DNA of 64,000 nt from an uncultured bacterium (GCA_963740635.1 CAVUEQ010000001.1:145026-209025), one strand, 5' to 3'; counted from the first letter of the stretch, positions 11,710 to 32,842 are shown. The notes: generated by a model from the letters alone, not told the origin. Translations and numbers: made by a program.

Positions 11710-14305
11710 ATGGCCTATAAACTGCTAACAAAAATCTTAGGTGACCCCAACGTCCGCGAAGTCAAGCGGGCGCGGGCGCAGGTGGAGCGGGCGGGCGCCC
11801 ATGAGGCCGCCATGAAGAAGCTCGGTGATGAAGCGCTCAAGGAGCAGACGGCGAAGTTTAAGAAACGCCTGGAGAAGGGCGAAGCGCTGGACAAGCTGCT
11901 GCCGGAGGCGTTCGCGGCGGTGCGCGAGGCGGCCGGCCGGGTGATAGGACAAAGGCATTATGACGTGCAGTTTGTGGGCGGAATTGTGCTTCACCAAGGC
12001 AAAATCGCTGAGATGCGGACCGGTGAAGGCAAGACGCTGGTGGCTACGGCGCCGTCGTATCTGAACGCATTGACCGGCAAGGGCGTGCATGTGGTGACCG
12101 TCAACGATTACCTGGCGAGTTTGCACGGCGGCTGGATGGGTTCGGTGTACTACGCGCTGGGCCTGACGACCGGCGTGATCGTGCACGATGCTGCCTACGT
12201 GTACGACCCCGAGTTCAATAGCCAGGAGCACTCCGATGACCGTATGAACCACCTGCGGGCAGTGAGCCGGCAGGAGGCCTACCAGGCCGACATCACCTAC
12301 GGCACCAACAATGAATTCGGCTTTGATTACCTGCGCGACAATATGGTGGACGACCTGAGCAAGATGGTGCAGCGGCCGTTACACTTCGCCATCGTGGACG
12401 AGGTGGACTCGATATTGATCGATGAGGCCCGGACGCCGCTGATTATTTCAGCGCCGGCCAATGAGGCCACCGACAAGTATTATGACTTCGCGCGGCTGGC
12501 CGGCACACTGACGCCGGAAACCGATTATACGCTCGATGAGAAACTAAAGGCCGTAAGCCTCACTGACGAAGGGGTGGAGAAGATTGAGCGGGCGCTGGGC
12601 ATAGACAACGTGTATGAAGCCGGCCGCATCGACGATGTGCATCAATTGAGCAAGCGGTGCGGGCGCAGGCGCTGTACCTGCGCGACAAGGATTACGTGGT
12701 GCGCGAAGGCGAAATTATCATCGTGGATGAATTTACCGGCCGCCTGATGCCGGGCCGGCGCTGGAACGAAGGGTTGCACCAGGCTATGGAGGCCAAAGAG
12801 GGCGTTGAGATCCAGCAGGAGTCGCTGACGCTGGCCACGATAACATTTCAAAACTATTTCCGGCTGTACGAAAAACTATCTGGAATGACCGGTACGGCGG
12901 CAACGGAAAAGGAGGAGTTTCACAAGATTTACAAACTGGATGTGGTGACAATCCCGACGCACCGGCCGATGGTGCGTAACGACATGCCCGACCGGATATA
13001 TAAGAGCGAGGCCGGCAAATTCCGGTCGGTGGCCAGGGAGGTGGCGGCGATGCACGAGAAGGGCCAGCCGGTGCTGATAGGTACCGTCAGCATCGCCAAG
13101 AACGAGCTGCTGAGCCAGTATTTGAACGAGCTGGGCGTGCCGCACCAGGTGCTAAATGCCAAGAACAACGAGACAGAAGCCGAGACCATCGCGTCGGCCG
13201 GGCGGCGCGGGGCGGTGACGCTGGCGACCAACATTGCCGGCCGCGGTACCGACATTATGCTGGAGCGGGGGTGGACAAACTGGGCGGGTTGCACGTGCTG
13301 GGTACTGAGCGCCACGAGAGCCGGCGGATTGATAACCAGCTGCGCGGCCGGACCGGACGCCAGGGCGACCCGGGTTCGAGCCAGTTTTATGTGAGCCTGG
13401 AAGACGACCTGATGCGCATATTCGGCTGCGAGCGCATTGCCGGAATTATGGACTCGCTGGGACTCGACGACGAGACGCCGATAGAGAACAAGCTGGTGAG
13501 CCGCAGTCTCGAGAGCGCGCAGAAGAAGGTGGAGGGGCACAACTTCGATACCCGCAAGCAACTGGTGGAGTATGACGATGTCATGAACCGGCATCGCGAG
13601 GTGATCTATGCGCGGCGGCGCAAAGCTTTGGCGGCCGAGACTCTGCGCGAAGACATAATGGAAATGATGCGCAAAGAAGTGGCGGCGATGGTGGTGGCGC
13701 ACACGAACGCCCGCACCGGCGAGCTTGATAACGAGGCCTTGCGCGAGGCAATTTCGAGCATTGTGCCGGTGCTGGATGAATTGTCGCGGAAGCTCGAGGG
13801 AGCGCACGAAAGCGAAATAACCGGCCTGGTGATGGATGAGGCAACGGCGGTGTACGATGCGCGCACCGAATCATTCAGTGAGCCGGTGATGCGGATGGTG
13901 GAGCGGTTTACCTATATTAACGCTCTAGACCGGCTTTGGATTGAACATTTGGAGGCGATGGACAGTCTGAGGTCGGGGATAGGGCTACGGGCGATTGGGC
14001 AGAAGGAACCGCTGGTGGAGTACAAGCGTGAGGGCTTTAGGATGTTTAAACAACTGATTGCGCTGCTTGATGCCGAAGTGGCGACGATGATCTTTAAGGT
14101 GAGCATTAGCACCAACGCGCCTCCGGTAGCGGCGCCGGTGGAAACGGCGCTCACGCGGGCGGCGGAGCAGGCCTCCACCAACGCCGGCGCCGATGGGGTC
14201 CAGGCTCCAGGATTGGCCGGCGGGCCCTCGCGGCAGGAGCGGCGGGCCAAAACCCGGCCGATCGGAAGCAACAGCGCCACTAAAAAACACAAAAAGCGCA
14301 GGTGA
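11710..14305 (+). pseudogene. secA: preprotein translocase ATPase SecA, interrupted by two -1 frame changes (pseudogene or sequence error)
   Basis: Three consecutive ORFs (frames 1, 0, 2) together give a colinear SecA. Motifs: [84 protein letters not shown]. The breaks are near 12640-12650 and in the G5 run at 13267-13271. Confidence 0.85.
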
Positions 14306-17770: not shown

Positions 17771-18856
17771 TTGAACAAACTGTTGACCGTAGTAACGAAA
17801 TTTGCCCGCGTTTTGGCGGCTAGTTTAATTGTGGTCACGGTGGGCCTGCCGGTGGCAGCCAATGCTGATGGGGGCCGGGACTGTGTGGCCAACTCAATAA
17901 TGTGGTGCGGCGCCCTCACTAAAACCGAGTGGGTGAATAAGGTCCACGCCGGTGACGGCCACAATTCGGCCGCCAATATCCAACAGATTTATTTTAAGGA
18001 AGGCCGCGGCATTACCGAGGCGGACTTCAAGAGCTCGTGCACGGTTGACGGGGTGGCTTATAAGGACGGCCGCGTGGTTGTGGGCGGCAAAACCGTCGCG
18101 ACCGGCGCGAAAAGTATTGGCCGCGCCCAGCAGCCGGGGGCGGTGCGCAGCGGCAGCGTCTGGATGACTCCGAACCAAAATGCGTTTTTGTCGGGTTCAA
18201 TTTCGGCCTGGGTGGATATGTGCGGCGGCCAATTTCACTGGTTTATCTTGAAGTCTTGCGGTAATGCCGGGGTGGGCATGGCGGTGGCGAAGCCCACGCC
18301 TGCCCCGACGCCAAAGCCGGCCCCCAAGATTAGCCCCACTCCTAAACCCACGCCGGCCCCGGTGCTGTCATTTAAGTGCCTCTCATTGCGCGAATTCAAG
18401 CCCGCGGACCAGCCGGATGTGTTTAGGTTCACCGTGGACAGCAATGTGGATGGAGTGACGCTCACGGGCTTCCGCTTCACTGCGCAGCAGGAAGGCTCCG
18501 ATAACGCTGCGGATGTGAGCGACACCGACGCCGGCACGAATTTTAAAGACTACTCGTTTGCTTCGGGGACTTGGGTGGTGCAGGCGCAGGTAAAGACGAG
18601 TGCCGGCATTACCGCCATCAATGATGACTGCACCGCTATGGTGACCGTGCCGGTTGCGCCTTCGACCTCGCCGTCGCCGGCGCCGAAGCCCACAGGTGAG
18701 GTGCTGGGTGCCGCGACGCTACCGGCCACCGGCCCGGAAGTGTTGTTGGGTGGAGCCGCGGGCCTCACGGCTATCGGTTATGCCGGCCGGGCCTACCTGC
18801 GCTCGCGTAAGTCGCTGCTGGCGGCTATGCGCACCGACCGCACCAACAAATCCTAA
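17771..18856 (+). CDS. LPXTG-type surface protein, paralogue 1 (361 aa)
   Basis: AAGGGAGG RBS plus TTG start. Signal peptide, Cys-containing N-domain, PT-rich linker (KPTPAPTPKPAPKISPTPKPTPAP), beta-rich domain, PS linker, LPATG, TM, basic tail. Confidence 0.75.
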   Translation: MNKLLTVVTKFARVLAASLIVVTVGLPVAANADGGRDCVANSIMWCGALTKTEWVNKVHAGDGHNSAANIQQIYFKEGRGITEADFKSSCTVDGVAYKDGRVVVGGKTVATGAKSIGRAQQPGAVRSGSVWMTPNQNAFLSGSISAWVDMCGGQFHWFILKSCGNAGVGMAVAKPTPAPTPKPAPKISPTPKPTPAPVLSFKCLSLREFKPADQPDVFRFTVDSNVDGVTLTGFRFTAQQEGSDNAADVSDTDAGTNFKDYSFASGTWVVQAQVKTSAGITAINDDCTAMVTVPVAPSTSPSPAPKPTGEVLGAATLPATGPEVLLGGAAGLTAIGYAGRAYLRSRKSLLAAMRTDRTNKS

Positions 18857-19052: not shown

Positions 19053-19748
19053 ATGTATAATTTTTTGGTACATAAACGGCCGTTGCGGGTTATTGCGGCT
19101 ATTTTAGTGGGTGGCTGCTTGTGCTTGCCTGTCCTGGCAGCCGCAGGTTCTTCAACGCCTGCTCCCGGTTCGAAGCCGGCTCCCGGTCCGATCGGCACTT
19201 TCTCGTGCGTGGCCCTGGTGCCGGTCCAGCCCGATTTTGTGGGTAACCCAAGCCGGTGGCGTTTCACCGTGAGCCCGCATATCGCCGAGGGAGTGACGGT
19301 GACAGGCTACCGGTTTACGCGTCATCAAGAAGGGGAGGATACTACCCCAACCGAGGTTTTCGACACCGACGCCGCCACGAACTTTATCGAGTTTACATTT
19401 GGACCTGGCACTTGGCTGGTGACCGGACAAATCATGACCACATCCGGAATCACGGCCGTGAGCCAAAAATGCTCGGTGATAACGACCATGCCCGTGGGCA
19501 CGAGTCCGGCGTCACAGCCGGTCTCGGCGCAGTCACCGGGGCAGGGCGGCCAGGGGCAGGGCGGCCAGGGTCAGGGCCAGGGTCAGGGCCAGGTGTTGGG
19601 GTCGGCGTCACTGCCGGACACTGGCCCCGCAGCAATGCTGGCCGGGGCACTTGGGCTGACGGCGATCGGCTATGCCGCCCGGGCGTACCTGCGATCGCGC
19701 CAGTCATTGCATCAGCTGCATCGGAGCGACCGGACGAACAAATCTTAA
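19053..19748 (+). CDS. LPXTG-type surface protein, paralogue 2 (231 aa)
   Basis: GAGGGAGGGG RBS plus ATG. Signal peptide, the same beta-rich domain as paralogue 1, a GQ-repeat linker, LPDTG, TM, and a conserved tail RAYLRSRQSL...DRTNKS. Confidence 0.75.
   Translation: MYNFLVHKRPLRVIAAILVGGCLCLPVLAAAGSSTPAPGSKPAPGPIGTFSCVALVPVQPDFVGNPSRWRFTVSPHIAEGVTVTGYRFTRHQEGEDTTPTEVFDTDAATNFIEFTFGPGTWLVTGQIMTTSGITAVSQKCSVITTMPVGTSPASQPVSAQSPGQGGQGQGGQGQGQGQGQVLGSASLPDTGPAAMLAGALGLTAIGYAARAYLRSRQSLHQLHRSDRTNKS
19539..19592 (+). repeat. in-frame tandem GGN-CAG repeat encoding GQGGQGQGGQGQGQGQGQ
   Basis: Read directly: ggg cag ggc ggc cag ggg cag ggc ggc cag ggt cag ggc cag ggt cag ggc cag. Confidence 0.9.
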
Positions 19749-26261: not shown

Positions 26262-27354
26262 CGATCTCGAGCTGCTGTACGTGGGCCAGGCCGGCGGCAT
26301 GGAGGCCAAGATTGTGGCGGCTTCGGGCTTGAAATTCGCGCCGATCGCGGCGGGTAAGTTCCGGCGCAACCACTTTGACTCGGGCCTCAGCAAGGTCTTT
26401 AACTTAACTACTCTCGGCCCGAATGCCCGTGACAGCCTTAAGACCGTTCAGGGCGTGGGCCAGGCATTAACGATCCTGCGCAGCTTCAAGCCGGATGTGG
26501 TGTTTTTGAAGGGTGGTTTCGTGTGCCTGCCGGTGGGGTGTGCTGCCAAAATGCTGGGCATACCGTTTGTGATCCACGAATCTGACGCCACGCCGGGGCT
26601 GACGAACCGGATACTGAGCCGTTGGGCGGACAAAATTGCGGTTGGGTTTCCGGTGAAGGCCTACCGCATGCTCGACCCGGCCAAGCTGGTGTACGTGGGT
26701 AACCCGGCGCGCGCGGATATTTCGGCCAGTCACCGGCTGGAGGGCCTGGCGCATTTTGATTTGGACGAAAGTGTGCCCGTGGTCTTGATTACCGGCGGCT
26801 CCCAGGGCGCGGCGCAAATTAATAACATTGTGCTCGGGGCGCTGCCGGAGCTGGTGGCCGATTACCAGATTATCCACCAAACCGGCGACCGGGAGATCGC
26901 CCGGATCCAGTTTGAATTGCGCGGGCATATGAAAGAGCCGCATATGGATCGCTACCATCCGTTTGGTTTTCTCATGGGCGATATGGGCCTGGCGCTGGCC
27001 GCGGCCGATTTGGTCGTGGGCCGGGCCGGCGTGAACACTATTAACGATTCAGCCATTCTGGGGAGGCCAACCATATTGATCCCGAACACCGAAATGGCCG
27101 GCCACCAGGTGGAGAACGCCAAGGTGCTGTCGCGGCAGGGGGCGGTGCGGGTGCTGGACGGGGATAAGCTGACTCCGGCCGGGCTGGTGGCCGAGATCAA
27201 GGCGGTTTTGGGTGACGATGCCGAGCAAGCCCGGTTGTCGGCGGCTATCCGGAAGTTTGGCCGGCCGGACGCGGCTGAGGCTCTGGCCAAGCTCATTGCG
27301 GAACGGGCGCAAGCCCATAGCAAACAAAAACCGAACACTGAGGACGACGAGTGA
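26176..27354 (+). CDS. murG: UDP-GlcNAc:lipid I N-acetylglucosaminyltransferase MurG
   Basis: N-terminal G-loop SGGGSAGHILP, then ITGGSQGA and GRAGVNTI. AAGAGAGG RBS. Confidence 0.9.
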   Translation: MRVVVSGGGSAGHILPTLATSDALKSLDSDLELLYVGQAGGMEAKIVAASGLKFAPIAAGKFRRNHFDSGLSKVFNLTTLGPNARDSLKTVQGVGQALTILRSFKPDVVFLKGGFVCLPVGCAAKMLGIPFVIHESDATPGLTNRILSRWADKIAVGFPVKAYRMLDPAKLVYVGNPARADISASHRLEGLAHFDLDESVPVVLITGGSQGAAQINNIVLGALPELVADYQIIHQTGDREIARIQFELRGHMKEPHMDRYHPFGFLMGDMGLALAAADLVVGRAGVNTINDSAILGRPTILIPNTEMAGHQVENAKVLSRQGAVRVLDGDKLTPAGLVAEIKAVLGDDAEQARLSAAIRKFGRPDAAEALAKLIAERAQAHSKQKPNTEDDE

Positions 27355-28157
27355 GCGAGCGCCGGGTACACGTTTCGGGCCGTCCGACCTACGGCCGGGT
27401 GCAGCCACCCGGCCGGCCGCCGAGAAGACCCGGCATGAAGCGGGGGAGTATGTCGCCGCTGCAGCGCCGGCTTCTGGTGGTGGTTGTGGTGATGGCGCTG
27501 GCGGGGTGGGGGATAGGGCAGTTGTTCGCGCTGCGTACCGTGGCCGTGCAGGCGCCCTCGCGGAAAGCCGAAATCGAATCCGAGGCCCGCAAGGTGGCAG
27601 CCAGCAATTGGCAATGGGGGAACCTGGTGACGTTTGATAATGGGGCATTCGTGTCAAAATTACAACAGGCCGACCCCTTGCTGCGCAACGTGACCGTGAG
27701 GCGGAAATGGTTGCATACGATCGTGGTGACAGCCGTTCTCAAACAGCCGAGTTTGGGTTGGAGCACCGGCAACGTTACCTACGTGCTCGACCGGGACGGG
27801 ACGGTGATAGGGCAGGGGGGAGCCACGCCGGGCTTGCCGGTGGTATACGACGGCAGTAACCTGCCGGTCCAGCTTGGGCAGCGGGCGGCGAACGAACATT
27901 TTGTGGGGTTTGTGACGCAGATTATGCCGGCCCTGGCGGCGCAGGGGATAGGGGTAACCCGCCTGGATATCAAGGAAACCACGCTCGATCTTACAGCCAC
28001 GACCAACAAGGGCTACCGGTTGCTGTTTGACACCGGCCGGGACGCTCAGGAGGAGGTGGGTGACTTGGCGGCCGTACAACGGTTGCTGGTGAGCCAAAAG
28101 CGCACTCCGGCCGAATACATCGACCTGCGCATCGCCGGCAAGGCCTACTATAAATAG
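27351..28157 (+). CDS. ftsQ: cell division protein FtsQ (POTRA domain)
   Basis: Basic N-terminus, one TM, a POTRA-like segment (LRTVAVQAPSRKAEIESEARK...) and a beta-rich C-domain. GTGA overlap with murG. Confidence 0.75.
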   Translation: MSERRVHVSGRPTYGRVQPPGRPPRRPGMKRGSMSPLQRRLLVVVVVMALAGWGIGQLFALRTVAVQAPSRKAEIESEARKVAASNWQWGNLVTFDNGAFVSKLQQADPLLRNVTVRRKWLHTIVVTAVLKQPSLGWSTGNVTYVLDRDGTVIGQGGATPGLPVVYDGSNLPVQLGQRAANEHFVGFVTQIMPALAAQGIGVTRLDIKETTLDLTATTNKGYRLLFDTGRDAQEEVGDLAAVQRLLVSQKRTPAEYIDLRIAGKAYYK

Positions 28158-28569: not shown

Positions 28570-31425
28570 TTAGCGGAAGCTAATTGGCTGGCCGGGTTCA
28601 ATCGGATTTGGCGCGGTCTGTGTGCGGTGTACGGCCGGCTCACGCGTTTCTGCGGGCGCCTGAGGCGCCGAAGGGCGGTAGGGGACGCCCGGCTCGGGGT
28701 TTCGGGTGGCTCTCCCCTCGCCTCCCCGATGGTCGGGGCGGTCTCCCCCGCCTGGACGTCCGCCTCCGCCGCGGTTGTCACGGCCGCTTCCCTGCTCGAA
28801 GCGGCGGCCGCTCCCTTGTTCGCTTGGCCTATCCCCTGCCCGGCGCTCGGGTGGGTGGAAATCTCGGCGGGGGTTAGCCGGTGCAGAGGGATTCTTGAGC
28901 GCGTTGAGTAAGTCTTTGTTCGGTCTTTGTTCAGGCTGACCGGCGCCGACCGCCCGGTTGCCCTCATCATGGGCGCCGGCGGTGCGGCTGCGGATATCGG
29001 CATCTACCAGGTCGCGGGTACTGGCCAGCTTCTCGCGCGTCATTTGGACGATACTGGCCGTGAGGTCGTTTTCGGGATCGGGCATGCGCAGGGTGCTGGC
29101 GGAGAAGGGCGGGGCCTTCTCGCCGTCGATGATCATGGAGATGAAGATGTTTTGGTTGTGGAGCTTGGTAAGGTCGATAGCTTCAAAGACCGGCTCGTAG
29201 TATTTGCCGAGTACTGTGGCGTCGTTGGGACCGATGCGGAAGCTCACCATAGTGCCGACGTTGCCGAAGACGGCGTCGCGGACCACTTCGGGCATCTGGG
29301 AGACGTACTGGTTCGCCACGGTGAGGTTGAGGCCGTACTTGCGGGCCTCAGACAGGATGACGGCGAACGAGTCGGTGGCAAAATTCTGGAACTCGTCGAC
29401 GTAGAGGTAGAAGGGGCGGCGGTCTTCGAGGGGCATGTCGGCGCGGGACATGGCTGCCAGCTGGATCTTGGTGACCATGAGCGCGCCCAGGATGGCGGCG
29501 TTGTCTTCCCCGACCTGGCCGCGGCTGAGGTTGACGAGCAGGATTTTGCCTTCGTCCATGATTTGGCGGATGTTGAAGGCCGATTTCTTCTGGCCGACGA
29601 TGTTGCGCACCAGCGGGTTGGCCACGAACGCGCCCACCTTGTTGAGCACCGGAGCAACGGCTTCGGAGGCGAATTTCTCGTTCCAGCTGGCAAACTCAGT
29701 CACCCAGAAGCTCTTGACGATCGGGTCTTGGATGTGGGAGATTACCTCTTTGCGGAAGGTTTTTTCGTTGAGCATGCGCGGGATGTCGAGCATGGTGGCC
29801 CCTTCGTAGTCGAGCAGGCCGAGGATGGTGTAGCGCAAGATGTACTCCAGCCGGGGTCCCCAGGAGTCGAACATGCGCTTGAGTACGCCCACGAGCTCGG
29901 AGCTGATATGGTCTTTCATGGCTGGGTCTGTCATCTCCATGGGATTGAAAGCCATTGGGAATTCGCGGTCGGCCGGGTTGAGGTAGACCACATCGTTTAG
30001 GCGGTGTTCGGGGATGTACTTCATGATATCGGTCGCGAAATCGCCGTGCGGGTCGACGATGGCGAAGCCCACGTCGTGGTAAATGTCGGAGAGCGTCAGT
30101 AGTTGGAGCAAGAATGACTTACCGGCGCCGGTTTGGCCGATGATGTACATGTGCCGGCCGCGGTCGCGGCGCTTAATGCCGAACTTGAGGTGACGGCCGC
30201 GGAAGTTGGTGAGGCCAAACAGGCTGATGTCGCCCGGCTCGCTGATGCCCTCCACGGGGATATTTGAGGGCGGCTCGGAGGTTTTGGCGGTGGTCCAGAC
30301 CATGTTGGGCGTTTCCACCGACTTGTGCGGCAGGTGGTACAGGCTGGCGAGCTCTTCGATGTTGAGAATGTAGCCGCTGTCGAAGAACAGGCGGGCTTGG
30401 TAATCGCCCAGGAACTCCTTGGAGTTGTACATTTTGGCGTTGGTGAAACCGTTGAGGTTGGTGGTATTGAACTGCTTGAAGCCGCCGACGATGGCTTGCA
30501 GGCGCTGGCGGGCGGAGGGCTCGTCGGGGCCGAGGTAGGCGATGCGGATTTTGACCTCGTAACCGAGTTTGGTGATCTTCTCTTCCACGGCCTTCATAAC
30601 GGCTTGCTGACCGGTGCCGAGCTCCACTTTACCGGCATTGGGCTTTTCTTTGGCGCTCGGAGGCTGGAAGAGGGCCAGGAAGAAATTGCTGACGATGTAG
30701 GCCGGCAGCTCGAGCAGGCCTTTGCTAAACAGGGAGCCGAGCCCGCCGGTGCTAGTCCCCCCTTTGATGGCTTCCACGTAGCGTTTACCTTCGTCTTGCC
30801 AGGTGTCGTCGGTAGGCCGGGCCAGGATTTGGATCCAGACCTCCTCCCCCGTTTGCTCGAGCTTGGCCAGTACGCCGGTGATGCCGGCCAGCGGGTCGAC
30901 CTCGAAGCTGGCGAAGGTCTTGATGGGCAGGTGCGTGTCTTTGGTGAGGCCGAGTTCGGTGCCGTAGATGGTGCGGTCGGCGACCTCCACGGCGGCATAG
31001 TCCAGCGGCCCCTCCTTGATCTGGACGGTCGGGTACTGGGCATACACCTGGCTTTCCACGAAGTCCTTGAGGTGCTTGGGTGTCCAGATATAGAACTGGA
31101 TCGAATTGAGCTTGGAGACAATTTCGAAGCTGATGTGTTCCTGGACGGAGCCTTCGCGGTTGAGCTCGGACTTGGGACGCAAAATGCCGTGCAGCGAAGC
31201 AAACATCTGCTCTGCCGACAGCTCTTTTTTCTCGTTGTCTTTGGGGACTTCGATTAGCAGCAGGATATTTTCGGTGGTGCCAAGCCAGCGTTCCCGGCGG
31301 CGGTTTTGCCAAAACAGGTAACCGAGTACGGCTACCACTATCACCCACCCGTAAAAACGAAACATCACCAGACCGATGATCTGGAAGATCGCCGTGATGG
31401 GGCTGAGAAGTGTTTGGATGTTCAT
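28570..31425 (-). CDS. membrane-anchored TraD/VirD4/FtsK-HerA-type P-loop ATPase with a large unknown N-domain and an RG-rich tail (951 aa)
   Basis: N-terminal hydrophobic hairpin (ITAIFQIIGLVMFRFYGWVIVVAVLGYLF). About 380 aa are unassigned. Walker A YIIGQTGAGKSF (about 30115-30141). Walker B FYLYVDEFQNF (about 29383-29412). The C-terminal roughly 130 aa are low-complexity R/G/P-rich. Confidence 0.8.
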   Translation of the reverse strand: MNIQTLLSPITAIFQIIGLVMFRFYGWVIVVAVLGYLFWQNRRRERWLGTTENILLLIEVPKDNEKKELSAEQMFASLHGILRPKSELNREGSVQEHISFEIVSKLNSIQFYIWTPKHLKDFVESQVYAQYPTVQIKEGPLDYAAVEVADRTIYGTELGLTKDTHLPIKTFASFEVDPLAGITGVLAKLEQTGEEVWIQILARPTDDTWQDEGKRYVEAIKGGTSTGGLGSLFSKGLLELPAYIVSNFFLALFQPPSAKEKPNAGKVELGTGQQAVMKAVEEKITKLGYEVKIRIAYLGPDEPSARQRLQAIVGGFKQFNTTNLNGFTNAKMYNSKEFLGDYQARLFFDSGYILNIEELASLYHLPHKSVETPNMVWTTAKTSEPPSNIPVEGISEPGDISLFGLTNFRGRHLKFGIKRRDRGRHMYIIGQTGAGKSFLLQLLTLSDIYHDVGFAIVDPHGDFATDIMKYIPEHRLNDVVYLNPADREFPMAFNPMEMTDPAMKDHISSELVGVLKRMFDSWGPRLEYILRYTILGLLDYEGATMLDIPRMLNEKTFRKEVISHIQDPIVKSFWVTEFASWNEKFASEAVAPVLNKVGAFVANPLVRNIVGQKKSAFNIRQIMDEGKILLVNLSRGQVGEDNAAILGALMVTKIQLAAMSRADMPLEDRRPFYLYVDEFQNFATDSFAVILSEARKYGLNLTVANQYVSQMPEVVRDAVFGNVGTMVSFRIGPNDATVLGKYYEPVFEAIDLTKLHNQNIFISMIIDGEKAPPFSASTLRMPDPENDLTASIVQMTREKLASTRDLVDADIRSRTAGAHDEGNRAVGAGQPEQRPNKDLLNALKNPSAPANPRRDFHPPERRAGDRPSEQGSGRRFEQGSGRDNRGGGGRPGGGDRPDHRGGEGRATRNPEPGVPYRPSAPQAPAETREPAVHRTQTAPNPIEPGQPISFR

Positions 31426-31669: not shown

Positions 31670-32704
31670 CTAATCTTTAAGCTTGTACGTCGCTTTGGCC
31701 GTGCGCTGGAACTGGTCCTTTTCCTGGAGGTTGAGGATGATGGTGGTGGTTTTGACCTGGCGCTTCAGGAGGACGCGGCGGACGATTTCGTCTTTGTGGA
31801 GCGGCTGCTCCTCGCGCAGTACGCTGGCAATAATCTCGGCGACGGTGCCGGGGGTGTAGCCCCACTCGGCGAGGGCATAAATGCCGCGGCCAATGAGGAT
31901 GAAGCGGGCGTCCTTGATGAGCTCGTTGTGGACAGCCTGCACGGTGACATTGCGCTTCGTGACACCGAGGCCTCGCACGTGCTTGGCGATCTCGGAGAAA
32001 TGCAGCGGGCGGCCGTGGCGGCTGAGCACCAGGTAGGTCTTGTCGCGAATGCTCTTGGGATTGACCTCCGGCCAGCTGATAAGGCCCCACTTGCCGTCGA
32101 AGTAAGCCAGCTTCTTGGAGATGCGCATGAGTTGCTCGATGGTGGCGCCGTCGAGCTCGGAGGGCAGCTTAACCTTCAGCTTGGCCAGAGTGATCGGCTT
32201 GGCGTAGTCTTTGACGGTCTTGATGATCTCGGTGAGGAGCTGGCTGACTTGGCTGCGGGAGTAAATCTGGGCGAGGCCGATGGCCTGGCGGACGTCGTCG
32301 TCCTCCTCGATGAGGTCAACGTTGGGGCTAAGCAAAGCCAGAAACACGATGTAAGGAATGTCGGTTTCGGGGGCGCCGAGGATTTCGGCCACGTCGGCTA
32401 CCGGCAAGATGCCGCCTTCGGCCGCGGCAATTTCGCGCAGTAACTCGCCGGCGCCGGCGATTTCGGCCGCGCCGGAAGCACGCATTTTCGTGATGGCAGC
32501 CTTCTCGATTTGGCGGACGCGTTCCCGGGTGATTTCGAAGTCACTCCCGATTTTTTCGAGAGTGAGGCGGCGGGTCAAACCAAAGCCAAACCGGCGGGCA
32601 ATTATCTGCCGGTCGCGGTCGCGCCGCAACTCGGTAAGTATTTGCTCAACGGCTGCTTTGTAGTCGTATTTAATTGGGGTCTTCGTGGTCATAACATTAG
32701 TCAT
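31670..32704 (-). CDS. sigma-70 region-4-like HTH protein fused to HARE-HTH-like domains (344 aa)
   Basis: RDRQIIARRFGFGLTRRLTLEKIGSDFEITRERVRQIEKAAITKMR matches sigma region 4. The C-terminal half (TYLVLSRHGRPLHFSEIAKHV...GRGIYALAEWGY) resembles HARE-HTH. Start taken at the ATG at 32704. Confidence 0.7.
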   Translation of the reverse strand: MTNVMTTKTPIKYDYKAAVEQILTELRRDRDRQIIARRFGFGLTRRLTLEKIGSDFEITRERVRQIEKAAITKMRASGAAEIAGAGELLREIAAAEGGILPVADVAEILGAPETDIPYIVFLALLSPNVDLIEEDDDVRQAIGLAQIYSRSQVSQLLTEIIKTVKDYAKPITLAKLKVKLPSELDGATIEQLMRISKKLAYFDGKWGLISWPEVNPKSIRDKTYLVLSRHGRPLHFSEIAKHVRGLGVTKRNVTVQAVHNELIKDARFILIGRGIYALAEWGYTPGTVAEIIASVLREEQPLHKDEIVRRVLLKRQVKTTTIILNLQEKDQFQRTAKATYKLKD

Positions 32705-32711
32705 CGTAGAG

Positions 32712-32740
32712 ATTATAAAACATATGATATGCAGTGTCAA
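32712..32740 (-). promoter_or_regulatory. perfect consensus sigma70 promoter (TTGACA-17-TATAAT) 7 nt before the ATG
   Basis: Minus strand TTGACA at 32740-32735, 17 nt spacer, TATAAT at 32717-32712, then CTCTACG and ATG at 32704. Confidence 0.6.
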
Positions 32741-32842
32741 CACATATTGTATTGCGACGAGTGTCGCCCTTGAGGGCGAAAAGACCTCCACATATTATAA
32801 TATTTGGCGACACATGTAAATAGCAGTCGCGCTATTTTTTGG

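Follow-up and report, generated by a model that had tools for sequence, protein, structure and literature searches.

What does a conjugation-type coupling ATPase do on a bacterial chromosome where the usual secretion and nicking genes do not surround it? The question is posed by one gene in a 64-kb stretch of DNA from an uncultured bacterium (GCA_963740635.1 CAVUEQ010000001.1:145026-209025), which is a Saccharimonadia-type chromosome segment. Here the whole 64-kb stretch is called the window, positions are counted along it, and the target gene is the one at 28570-31425 on the minus strand. Patescibacteria represent a large share of bacterial diversity and are ultra-small and host-dependent, and the route by which they capture resources from their hosts is obscure. 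Their type IV secretion system (T4SS) is essential in the sole species tested, yet it has no recognised coupling protein or relaxase. On the sequence evidence, the most likely reading, which we hold with moderate confidence, is that the target would be a DUF8128-subfamily type IV coupling protein (T4CP) that has been domesticated and handles DNA in an accessory role. By descent, it is a coupling ATPase of this subfamily, other members of which are tied to DNA nicking and transfer. It is domesticated in Patescibacteria, being chromosomal, apart from T4SS genes, without a nickase nearby and equipped with lineage-specific additions.

The target open reading frame (ORF) is intact, starts with ATG and encodes 951 amino acids (aa). 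The protein is identical to database protein P0001 (encoded on an 828,923-bp contig), whose precomputed annotation gives PF26449, PF10412 and PF01935, and the phrog_5156 profile covers aa 67-785 (E 3e-81). Four parts were distinguished: an N-terminal hydrophobic hairpin, a domain of ~350 aa, a VirD4/TrwB-type motor and a disordered tail of 136 aa. The ORF, the motifs and the models bear out the layout in the preliminary description (hairpin, long N-terminal region, P-loop domain and tail). The features of the target are as follows.

28570-31425, minus strand: whole gene, fused DUF8128 and VirD4-type coupling ATPase, 951 aa (ORF; identity to P0001; phrog_5156)
31306-31425, minus strand: aa 1-40, N-terminal hydrophobic hairpin, a predicted membrane anchor, then a basic NRRRERW (Kyte-Doolittle; model)
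30241-31275, minus strand: aa 51-395, DUF8128 domain with an alpha/beta fold (AlphaFold2 model; Foldseek; family annotation)
28981-30240, minus strand: aa 396-815, VirD4/TrwB-type P-loop motor (Pfam; Foldseek against TrwB; motifs)
29437-29925, minus strand: aa ~501-663, mainly helical insertion in the motor (full-length model; TrwB_AAD_bind alignment)
28573-28980, minus strand: aa 816-951, disordered basic G/P/R-rich tail (composition; drop in model confidence)
28573-28602, minus strand: aa 942-951, terminal peptide IEPGQPISFR (motif counts against shuffled tails)

The motor carries a Walker A motif (GQTGAGKS, aa 430-437), a Walker B motif (YLYVDE, aa 673-678) and VANQ (aa 703-706). With our local Pfam copy, matches spanned only aa 419-737, and four families exceeded their cut-offs: TrwB_AAD_bind (PF10412; 36.5 bits, cut-off 20.5), DUF87 (32.4 bits, cut-off 23.2), T4SS-DNA_transf (PF02534; 23.6 bits, cut-off 20.1) and TraG-D_C (PF12696; 22.9 bits, cut-off 22). 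TrwB (1e9r) was the top solved-structure match by sequence (E 9e-6). Foldseek superposed the motor on TrwB with a template modelling (TM) score of 0.65-0.69 (normalised to TrwB), a root-mean-square deviation (rmsd) of 4-6 Å and 17-19% identity, far better than on TrwK. The VirD4/TraD-type motor proposed earlier is upheld by these family scores and this superposition. In the model, the helical insertion is interrupted by one short strand (628-632) and the TrwB alignment spans the region; we take the modelled insertion as the likely counterpart of the all-alpha domain of T4CPs. A VirB4-type motor was not supported, with AAA_10 at 17.9 bits on the target (cut-off 27.5) and our own VirB4 profile at 16.3 bits.

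At the N-terminus, Kyte-Doolittle windows exceed 1.6 across aa 3-21 within a hydrophobic stretch of aa ~3-40. The full-length model (pLDDT 87, with confidence falling beyond about aa 815) contains two helices here (3-23 and 26-50), suggesting a membrane anchor with a predicted hairpin topology. The region that follows had been described as ~380 aa of unknown kind. It is in fact Pfam DUF8128 (PF26449), annotated on the identical protein P0001, and is part of an existing T4CP subfamily, although the function of DUF8128 is uncharacterised. Our own DUF8128 profile scored 448 bits on the target ORF; the local Pfam copy, which PF26449 postdates, had no match in aa 1-418.

The AlphaFold2 model of the N-domain (pLDDT 85.3, pTM 0.81) provides a first structural handle on DUF8128. 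In a Foldseek search of the PDB, 13 TrwK (VirB4) matches were the only significant ones (E 9e-6 to 2.5e-4), with TM scores of just 0.33-0.41 and rmsd of 9-12 Å. Behind them came another TrwK chain (E >= 1.6e-3) and unrelated structures (E >= 8e-3). The full-length target model is collinear with full-length TrwK over ~900 columns (E 3e-15), and the N-domain also matched the phage VirB-like gp155 in a viral fold library (E 1e-7). Sequence homology between DUF8128 and VirB4 found no support: hhalign against actinobacterial VirB4 gave a probability of 0.1%, and the DUF8128 profile had no match to PDB sequences at E<=10. The VirB4 likeness of the modelled domain is a fold-level lead, short of established homology. 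In published work, VirB4 dimerises through the N-terminal domain of TrwK (residues 15-400), around which VirB3 wraps, adding a transmembrane hairpin; the VirB4 N-terminal domain is a platform for VirB3 and VirB8 tails.

The ancestry of the protein is indicated by the recurrence of DUF8128 and motor, fused or as two adjacent genes, in plasmid conjugation clusters of Bacillota, Actinomycetota and haloarchaea and in Bacillus phages. A tblastn search with the target N-domain retrieved 45 plasmid records from Bacillota and haloarchaea, and the closest annotated relatives of the motor are T4CPs of monoderm conjugation clusters, with 27-31% identity to those on Embleya and B. subtilis plasmids. The cluster on Embleya plasmid NZ_CP108778 comprises PrgI, VirB4-like, 812-aa T4CP, Replic_Relax and NlpC/P60 genes, and the DUF8128 profile scored 25-27 bits on the N-region of that T4CP. 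The cluster on B. subtilis plasmid CP121709 has a hypothetical gene followed by DUF87, Replic_Relax and VirB4-like genes; here 63 bits were scored on the gene that immediately precedes the T4CP, and the pair measures 272 aa and 412 aa. Scores of 82 bits were obtained on the Natrinema pNVE500 gene between VirB4 and T4CP (pair of 395 aa and 1027 aa) and of 111 bits on a frameshifted Pontibacillus gene. The latter (plasmid NZ_CP062975, L091, 343693-344964 and downstream) is a fused DUF8128-T4CP that is apparently frameshifted just after Walker A, and its annotation splits it into 'hypothetical' pieces. A further plasmid observation concerns a motor-only ORF of 395 aa on Sulfitobacter mediterraneus plasmid NZ_CP081110 (L087, 99994-101181). 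Its identity to the Patescibacteria motor, 42.5%, exceeds that of every Gram-positive T4CP. This ORF is flanked by transposases on an alphaproteobacterial plasmid and may be a horizontal transfer or a fragment.

In the viral fold library, the N-domain matched phage G gp156 (E 4e-21, TM 0.61) as well as phage JL and phage Slash. When target aa 41-815 served as the query, 93% of it aligned with gp156 (25.5% identity), and SPO1 gp27.4 and 0305phi8-36 ORF201 aligned as well. Replic_Relax lies beside the T4CP in five examined contexts, namely SPO1 (gp27.3), phage G, Embleya, B. subtilis and a metagenomic element. The phage version has been described as a relaxase and coupling-ATPase 'DNA translocation operon' that is dispensable in the laboratory, and a transmembrane segment is missing from 0305phi8-36 ORF201 (Pathria et al. 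2012, PMC3357382). In SPO1, the sigma factor gp28 is encoded 2.4 kb from the gp27.4 region on the other strand, which we take as coincidence.

Among Patescibacteria, nearly all of which carry the gene on the chromosome, the family is extremely widespread and its locus is conserved. More than 6,695 homologues of the target were found. Listed homologues with a source name were Saccharimonadales or Patescibacteria, with one labelled Dormibacteraeota, and PF26449 was present on all listed homologues except two. The N-domain alone yielded 2,551 clusters at 50% identity. In the 80 Saccharimonadia loci compared (one per species), the DUF8128-motor fusion occurs in 79, and a gene with Sigma70_r4 and HARE-HTH domains (sigma4/HARE) lies directly upstream of the T4CP gene in 79. 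Parcubacteria-type loci hold a split form, with a Sigma70_r4 + HARE-HTH gene (~355 aa), a DUF8128 gene (~425 aa) and an ATPase gene (~600 aa) in that order; the ATPase is of TrwB/DUF87 type and has a treble-clef zinc finger. The sigma4/HARE gene is likewise upstream in loci L002-L006 (three Parcubacteria-type proteins). Because stand-alone DUF8128 and ATPase genes adjoin in these loci, the target protein is a fused version of what is elsewhere a pair of genes. Between classes, identity is 53% for the motor, 35% for the sigma4/HARE partner and 31% for the N-domain. No Replic_Relax was found in the window or within +/-10 kb of the 80 Saccharimonadia orthologue loci, and no T4SS gene adjoined the orthologue in any of ~100 loci examined. 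The sigma4/HARE partner was not found beside the plasmid, phage or L092/L094 copies examined, the last two being a distant fused lineage whose T4CP gene sits between gatB and mfd. In that lineage, the T4CP gene is followed by a conserved ~190-aa protein (L092, 10384-11013; L094, 10499-11074) with a '...GDQVTIMVPK' strand resembling the Saccharimonadia terminal peptide.

In the window, the same arrangement is seen at the end of the dcw cluster. Family searches in Pfam confirmed both positions given in the preliminary description, convergent with ftsQ and downstream of the sigma-like/HARE-HTH gene, and the survey of orthologue neighbourhoods showed the latter to be a conserved neighbour. The immediate neighbours are as follows.

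31670-32692, minus strand: upstream neighbour with Sigma70_r4 (E 3e-13) and HARE-HTH (E 1e-8), 340 aa from the ATG at 32692 (Pfam; ORF to 32791)
31577-31550 and 31475-31448, minus strand: pair of promoter-like sites within the 244 bp that precede the target (consensus scan, 9/12 each; weak)
27351-28157, plus strand: ftsQ, closing the dcw cluster and converging on the target (Pfam FtsQ_DivIB_C and POTRA_1)

A perfect TTGACA-17-TATAAT occurs at 32712-32740 on the minus strand, within the long ORF 31670-32791. Because this site lies inside the longer ORF, the sigma4/HARE start is probably the ATG at 32692, as called on L001. The C-terminal part of the protein also matches the RNA-polymerase delta model, and the protein is well conserved across Patescibacteria classes, chiefly in its C-terminal half. 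The idea that it is a diverged Replic_Relax was rejected (hhalign probability 0.2%). No paper describing a sigma-r4/HARE-HTH protein turned up in a literature search that only touched on the subject. Further out, ftsQ is downstream of the orthologue in 48/80 Saccharimonadia loci and topA upstream in 61/80. Since dcw genes are downstream in only 48-54/80, adjacency to dcw is secondary, frequent but not obligatory.

The C-terminal tail is the part that varies most informatively. In the target (aa 816-951), it contains 15% G, 15% P and 15% R with a net charge of +5, and RGG triplets number only two. The RG-rich disordered tail noted earlier is thus real in the target and its close, high-GC relatives, but it does not extend to the family. 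Farther orthologues have K/E/N-rich tails or none, which contradicts conservation of an RGG-type tail. Conservation lies instead in the tail's basic, disordered character and, often, in a poly-Arg/Lys patch or short peptide at its end. A tail occurs in each of the 69 Saccharimonadia species whose C-termini are complete (75-265 aa, median 124), and these tails are net basic (K+R 18% vs D+E 11%). The motif G[QEDK]x[IV]x[FL]R was present within the last 20 aa of 54/126 orthologues compared with 1/2,520 shuffled tails, and a looser phi-x-phi-[RKH] ending in 35/69 Saccharimonadia species compared with 0.4% of shuffles. In at least 11 other Saccharimonadia species, a poly-Arg/Lys patch replaces the peptide. 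A 'PKKRRRRRKK...' ending is found in many orthologues, including L043 (Nanosynbacter sp. TM7-087), L024, L031 and L039. Peptide and poly-Arg/Lys patch seem to be alternative ways of finishing the tail. In the split Parcubacteria-type ATPases, the same terminal peptide closes the chain after a zinc ribbon, and the plasmid T4CPs examined do not have it.

Genetic data are available for Southlakia epibionticum. SEML1_0293 of strain ML1 (Wang et al. 2023) has 921 aa, PF10412 at 402-719 and the same product name as the target; a sigma-like gene lies directly upstream, then a hypothetical gene and topA, and it is flagged as a core, Patescibacteria-enriched family. It falls within the 't4cp homologues' tallied by Quinonero-Coronel et al. 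2025. It is presumed to be the target orthologue from its name, length, domain coordinates and synteny. Transposon sequencing (Tn-seq) called it non-essential (NE/NE/NE), with reads declining from 5817 to 2940 to 1372. The resulting T2/T0 of 0.24 was below that of 28/30 non-essential protein-coding genes in the portion of the table compared. The sigma-like gene upstream of it, SEML1_0294, is essential. So is the T4SS (SEML1_0006-0019), which has no recognizable coupling or relaxase proteins. Also essential is SEML1_0142, a further T4CP-like paralogue of 1,019 aa (P-loop domain 381-800, 'TraM recognition domain' annotation), which is preceded by a small essential hypothetical gene. SEML1_0142 is a candidate for T4SS partner, more likely than the target-type gene.

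In the preferred reading of a domesticated coupling ATPase, the target would form a TrwB-like hexamer on the cytoplasmic membrane face and would spend ATP moving or holding DNA. Its basic tail (a zinc ribbon in other classes) and terminal peptide may bring in DNA or a partner, which could be the DNA-binding protein encoded next door. The basic tails, the poly-Arg/Lys ends and the zinc ribbon suggest the link to DNA. C-terminal tails of T4CPs serve partner recognition, as when TraD binds TraM, and the target is also tailed. The job would be accessory and not needed for the essential function of the Patescibacteria T4SS, because SEML1_0293 is non-essential while the Southlakia T4SS is essential.

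Several observations weigh against this reading. The DNA role rests on ancestry, tail chemistry and neighbours, and no relaxase occurs at the examined loci to make a transferable strand. SEML1_0293 is a presumed orthologue of the target. Its partner SEML1_0294 is essential but SEML1_0293 is not, so the pair is not strictly co-functional. The distant fused lineage (L092, L094) has neither the sigma4/HARE partner nor a tail. Finally, the apparent link of DUF8128 to the VirB4 N-terminal domain is drawn from a modest fold match (TM 0.33-0.41), and the profile-profile test failed.

A possible explanation, to which we give a modest chance, is that the target serves the chromosomal T4SS of Patescibacteria as its remotely encoded coupling protein and hands protein effectors (or DNA) to the channel. 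The hairpin and the VirB4-like N-domain would dock on the VirB3/VirB4/VirB6/VirB8-like inner-membrane complex, and the protein would be dispensable in culture if the essential T4SS role (e.g., pilus-related) needs no T4CP. The preliminary description had found no T4SS genes within 30 kb, and this was corroborated: no T4SS, relaxase or pilin family was present among the window ORFs scanned with Pfam or NCBIfam (other large ORFs were judged by eye), and our own profiles revealed no second VirB4-like, T4CP-like, DUF8128 or Replic_Relax ORF in the six frames of the window. Its further suggestion of a motor without a T4SS does not follow, as Saccharibacteria are reported to carry a chromosomal T4SS elsewhere in the genome, and the remoteness of virD4 from virB4 is already published. 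Across 3,035 Patescibacteria genomes, 5,713 VirD4-type homologues were found in 2,918, only 148 of them near virB4; relaxases were almost absent, VirB4 was present in 2,417 genomes, and t4cp was perhaps exapted (Quinonero-Coronel et al. 2025).

Dependence on a T4SS is favoured by several lines of evidence. Motor and DUF8128 stem from conjugation clusters of the kind said to be ancestral to the Patescibacteria T4SS, T4CP genes are often away from virB4, and the Southlakia T4SS cluster is without a recognisable T4CP of its own. The collinearity of the whole-protein model with VirB4 (E 3e-15) and the role of the VirB4 N-terminal domain as a platform for VirB3 and the VirB8 tail point the same way. 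VirD4 is also not needed for T-pilus formation in Agrobacterium, so that a pilus can assemble without a T4CP. Independence is favoured by the Tn-seq phenotype, which is unlike that of T4SS genes, by the essential paralogue SEML1_0142 as the better candidate, by the presence of VirD4-type genes in more genomes than VirB4, by the ~100 loci with no T4SS gene adjoining and by homologues in lytic phages that have no T4SS.

A small chance is given to a bolder version of the domesticated coupling ATPase, in which Replic_Relax was lost and the enzyme was re-wired to the essential sigma-r4/HARE-HTH protein, the two making up a device that translocates DNA with no relaxase and possibly with no T4SS. The partner, bound to DNA, would be caught by the tail peptide or poly-basic end, and the hexamer would drive the DNA across the membrane or along it. 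If true, biosynthetically poor epibionts would have a second route of DNA uptake or export besides ComEC competence.

It is improbable that the target instead is a membrane-anchored, anti-sigma-like regulator that tethers and releases the sigma-region-4 protein via the terminal peptide, possibly with ATP- or secretion-coupled release. The order of a sigma-like gene followed by a membrane-protein gene in 79/80 Saccharimonadia and all Parcubacteria-type loci examined would suit such a role. Terminal peptide and partner are both found in those two lineages and both absent from the plasmid copies and L092/L094, and the Tn-seq results fit a factor that is essential and a modulator that is not. However, a T4CP acting as an anti-sigma factor has no known precedent, the intact and highly conserved motor (53% between classes) argues for translocase work, and many Saccharimonadia swap the peptide for poly-Arg/Lys with the partner retained.

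A chromosome pump of FtsK/SpoIIIE type acting at division is very improbable: the convergent ftsQ, the dcw genes downstream in many Saccharimonadia loci, the motor's membership in the FtsK/HerA superfamily and a mild fitness cost resembling that of non-essential DNA pumps would suggest it, but Southlakia has a complete, separate and essential canonical FtsK (SEML1_0096, with 4TM, alpha, motor and gamma domains), FtsK_SpoIIIE (PF01580) stays below its cut-off on the target (17.5 vs 24 bits) with no gamma, alpha or 4TM family found by Pfam, and dcw linkage is absent in Southlakia, Parcubacteria-type genomes and L092/L094. The earlier option of an FtsK variant or substitute is dropped for the same reasons.

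Other candidate identities were tried and rejected. For an anti-phage defence ATPase (MADS mad8, HerA, DndH), PADLOC matched the generic motor only (mad8 E 1e-17). For membership in a defence operon, no defence partners lie nearby, and the synteny is conserved and housekeeping across species. A recent mobile element does not fit either, as GC content is like that of the surroundings, 80 species share a conserved context, and there is neither an integrase nor a relaxase.

The remainder of the window includes several ORFs without an assignment. To the left of the target lie mreBCD, pbp2, greA, lysS, serS, secA, murD, rsmH, ftsI, mraY, ftsW, murG and ftsQ; on its other side are the sigma-like gene, galU-like, cofD-like, glyS, recO, a histidine kinase gene, xseA, pyrG, ftsEX, prfB, PBP1 and topA. 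Part of these names were confirmed by family searches and the remainder were assigned by eye from translations. The normally essential secA (11710-14305, plus strand) is broken over three frames (11710-12747, 12657-13394 and 13271-14305). Parcubacteria SecA aligns to the pieces as aa 3-312, 310-532 and 518-800 (frames 3, 2 and 1), and the two frameshifts are either assembly indel errors or the mark of a pseudogene. Two predicted proteins on the plus strand (17771-18856 and 19053-19748), between an M16 peptidase gene and rsmH, have hydrophobic signal-peptide-like N-termini (by eye) and no Pfam or NCBIfam family match. GC skew is positive on the plus strand in all 2-kb windows but one (about -0.01 to 0.24), and gene orientation flips at ~28.5 kb despite this steady skew. 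Should this skew identify the leading strand, transcription of glyS, pyrG, prfB, topA and the other genes of the right half would meet replication head-on.

The scattered Patescibacteria t4cp genes and the non-essentiality of one in Southlakia, the presumed orthologue SEML1_0293, are already published. As far as the searchable literature shows, the DUF8128 architecture and fold, the split and fused forms, the plasmid and phage link to Replic_Relax, the sigma4/HARE neighbour and the terminal peptide are apparently unpublished. One scattered VirD4-like family is now tied to a defined T4CP subfamily (DUF8128 and motor) of conjugative plasmids and phages. Among the copies sampled, only those of Patescibacteria show the sigma-r4/HARE-HTH neighbour, basic tail and terminal peptide, and their Replic_Relax nickase is gone. 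A vague remark on an exapted t4cp becomes a set of testable questions in a genetically tractable species.

Several known systems come close to the target. SEML1_0293 differs in its downstream genes, a hypothetical gene and cas9 compared with the dcw cluster at the target. VirB4/TrwK proteins likewise have two domains, an N-terminal domain of ~385 aa and a motor, and the VirB3 transmembrane hairpin around the VirB4 N-domain resembles the target's hairpin and DUF8128 arrangement; the target differs in a motor nearer VirD4, with AAA_10 below cut-off. Plasmid DUF8128-T4CPs sit among VirB4-like genes, joined in one cluster or another by PrgI, pilin-like, NlpC/P60 and Replic_Relax genes, and, unlike the target, have neither the terminal peptide nor a sigma4/HARE neighbour. 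The Pontibacillus copy nevertheless shares the layout of a transmembrane segment followed by 'LLEV...'. Phage coupling ATPases, unlike the target, have a Replic_Relax nickase and an actin-like partition protein as companions, and their function is putative too; they are dispensable under laboratory conditions, as is SEML1_0293. With TrwB of R388 and with VirD4/TraD/TraG, the target has in common an N-terminal anchor, a P-loop motor with Walker A and B motifs and a helical insertion. It differs from TrwB-type T4CPs in the ~350-aa DUF8128 domain between anchor and motor, in having no T4SS or relaxase gene in the 64 kb and a sigma-r4/HARE-HTH neighbour in place of the relaxase, and in its chromosomal location, where stable synteny indicates apparently vertical inheritance across the phylum.

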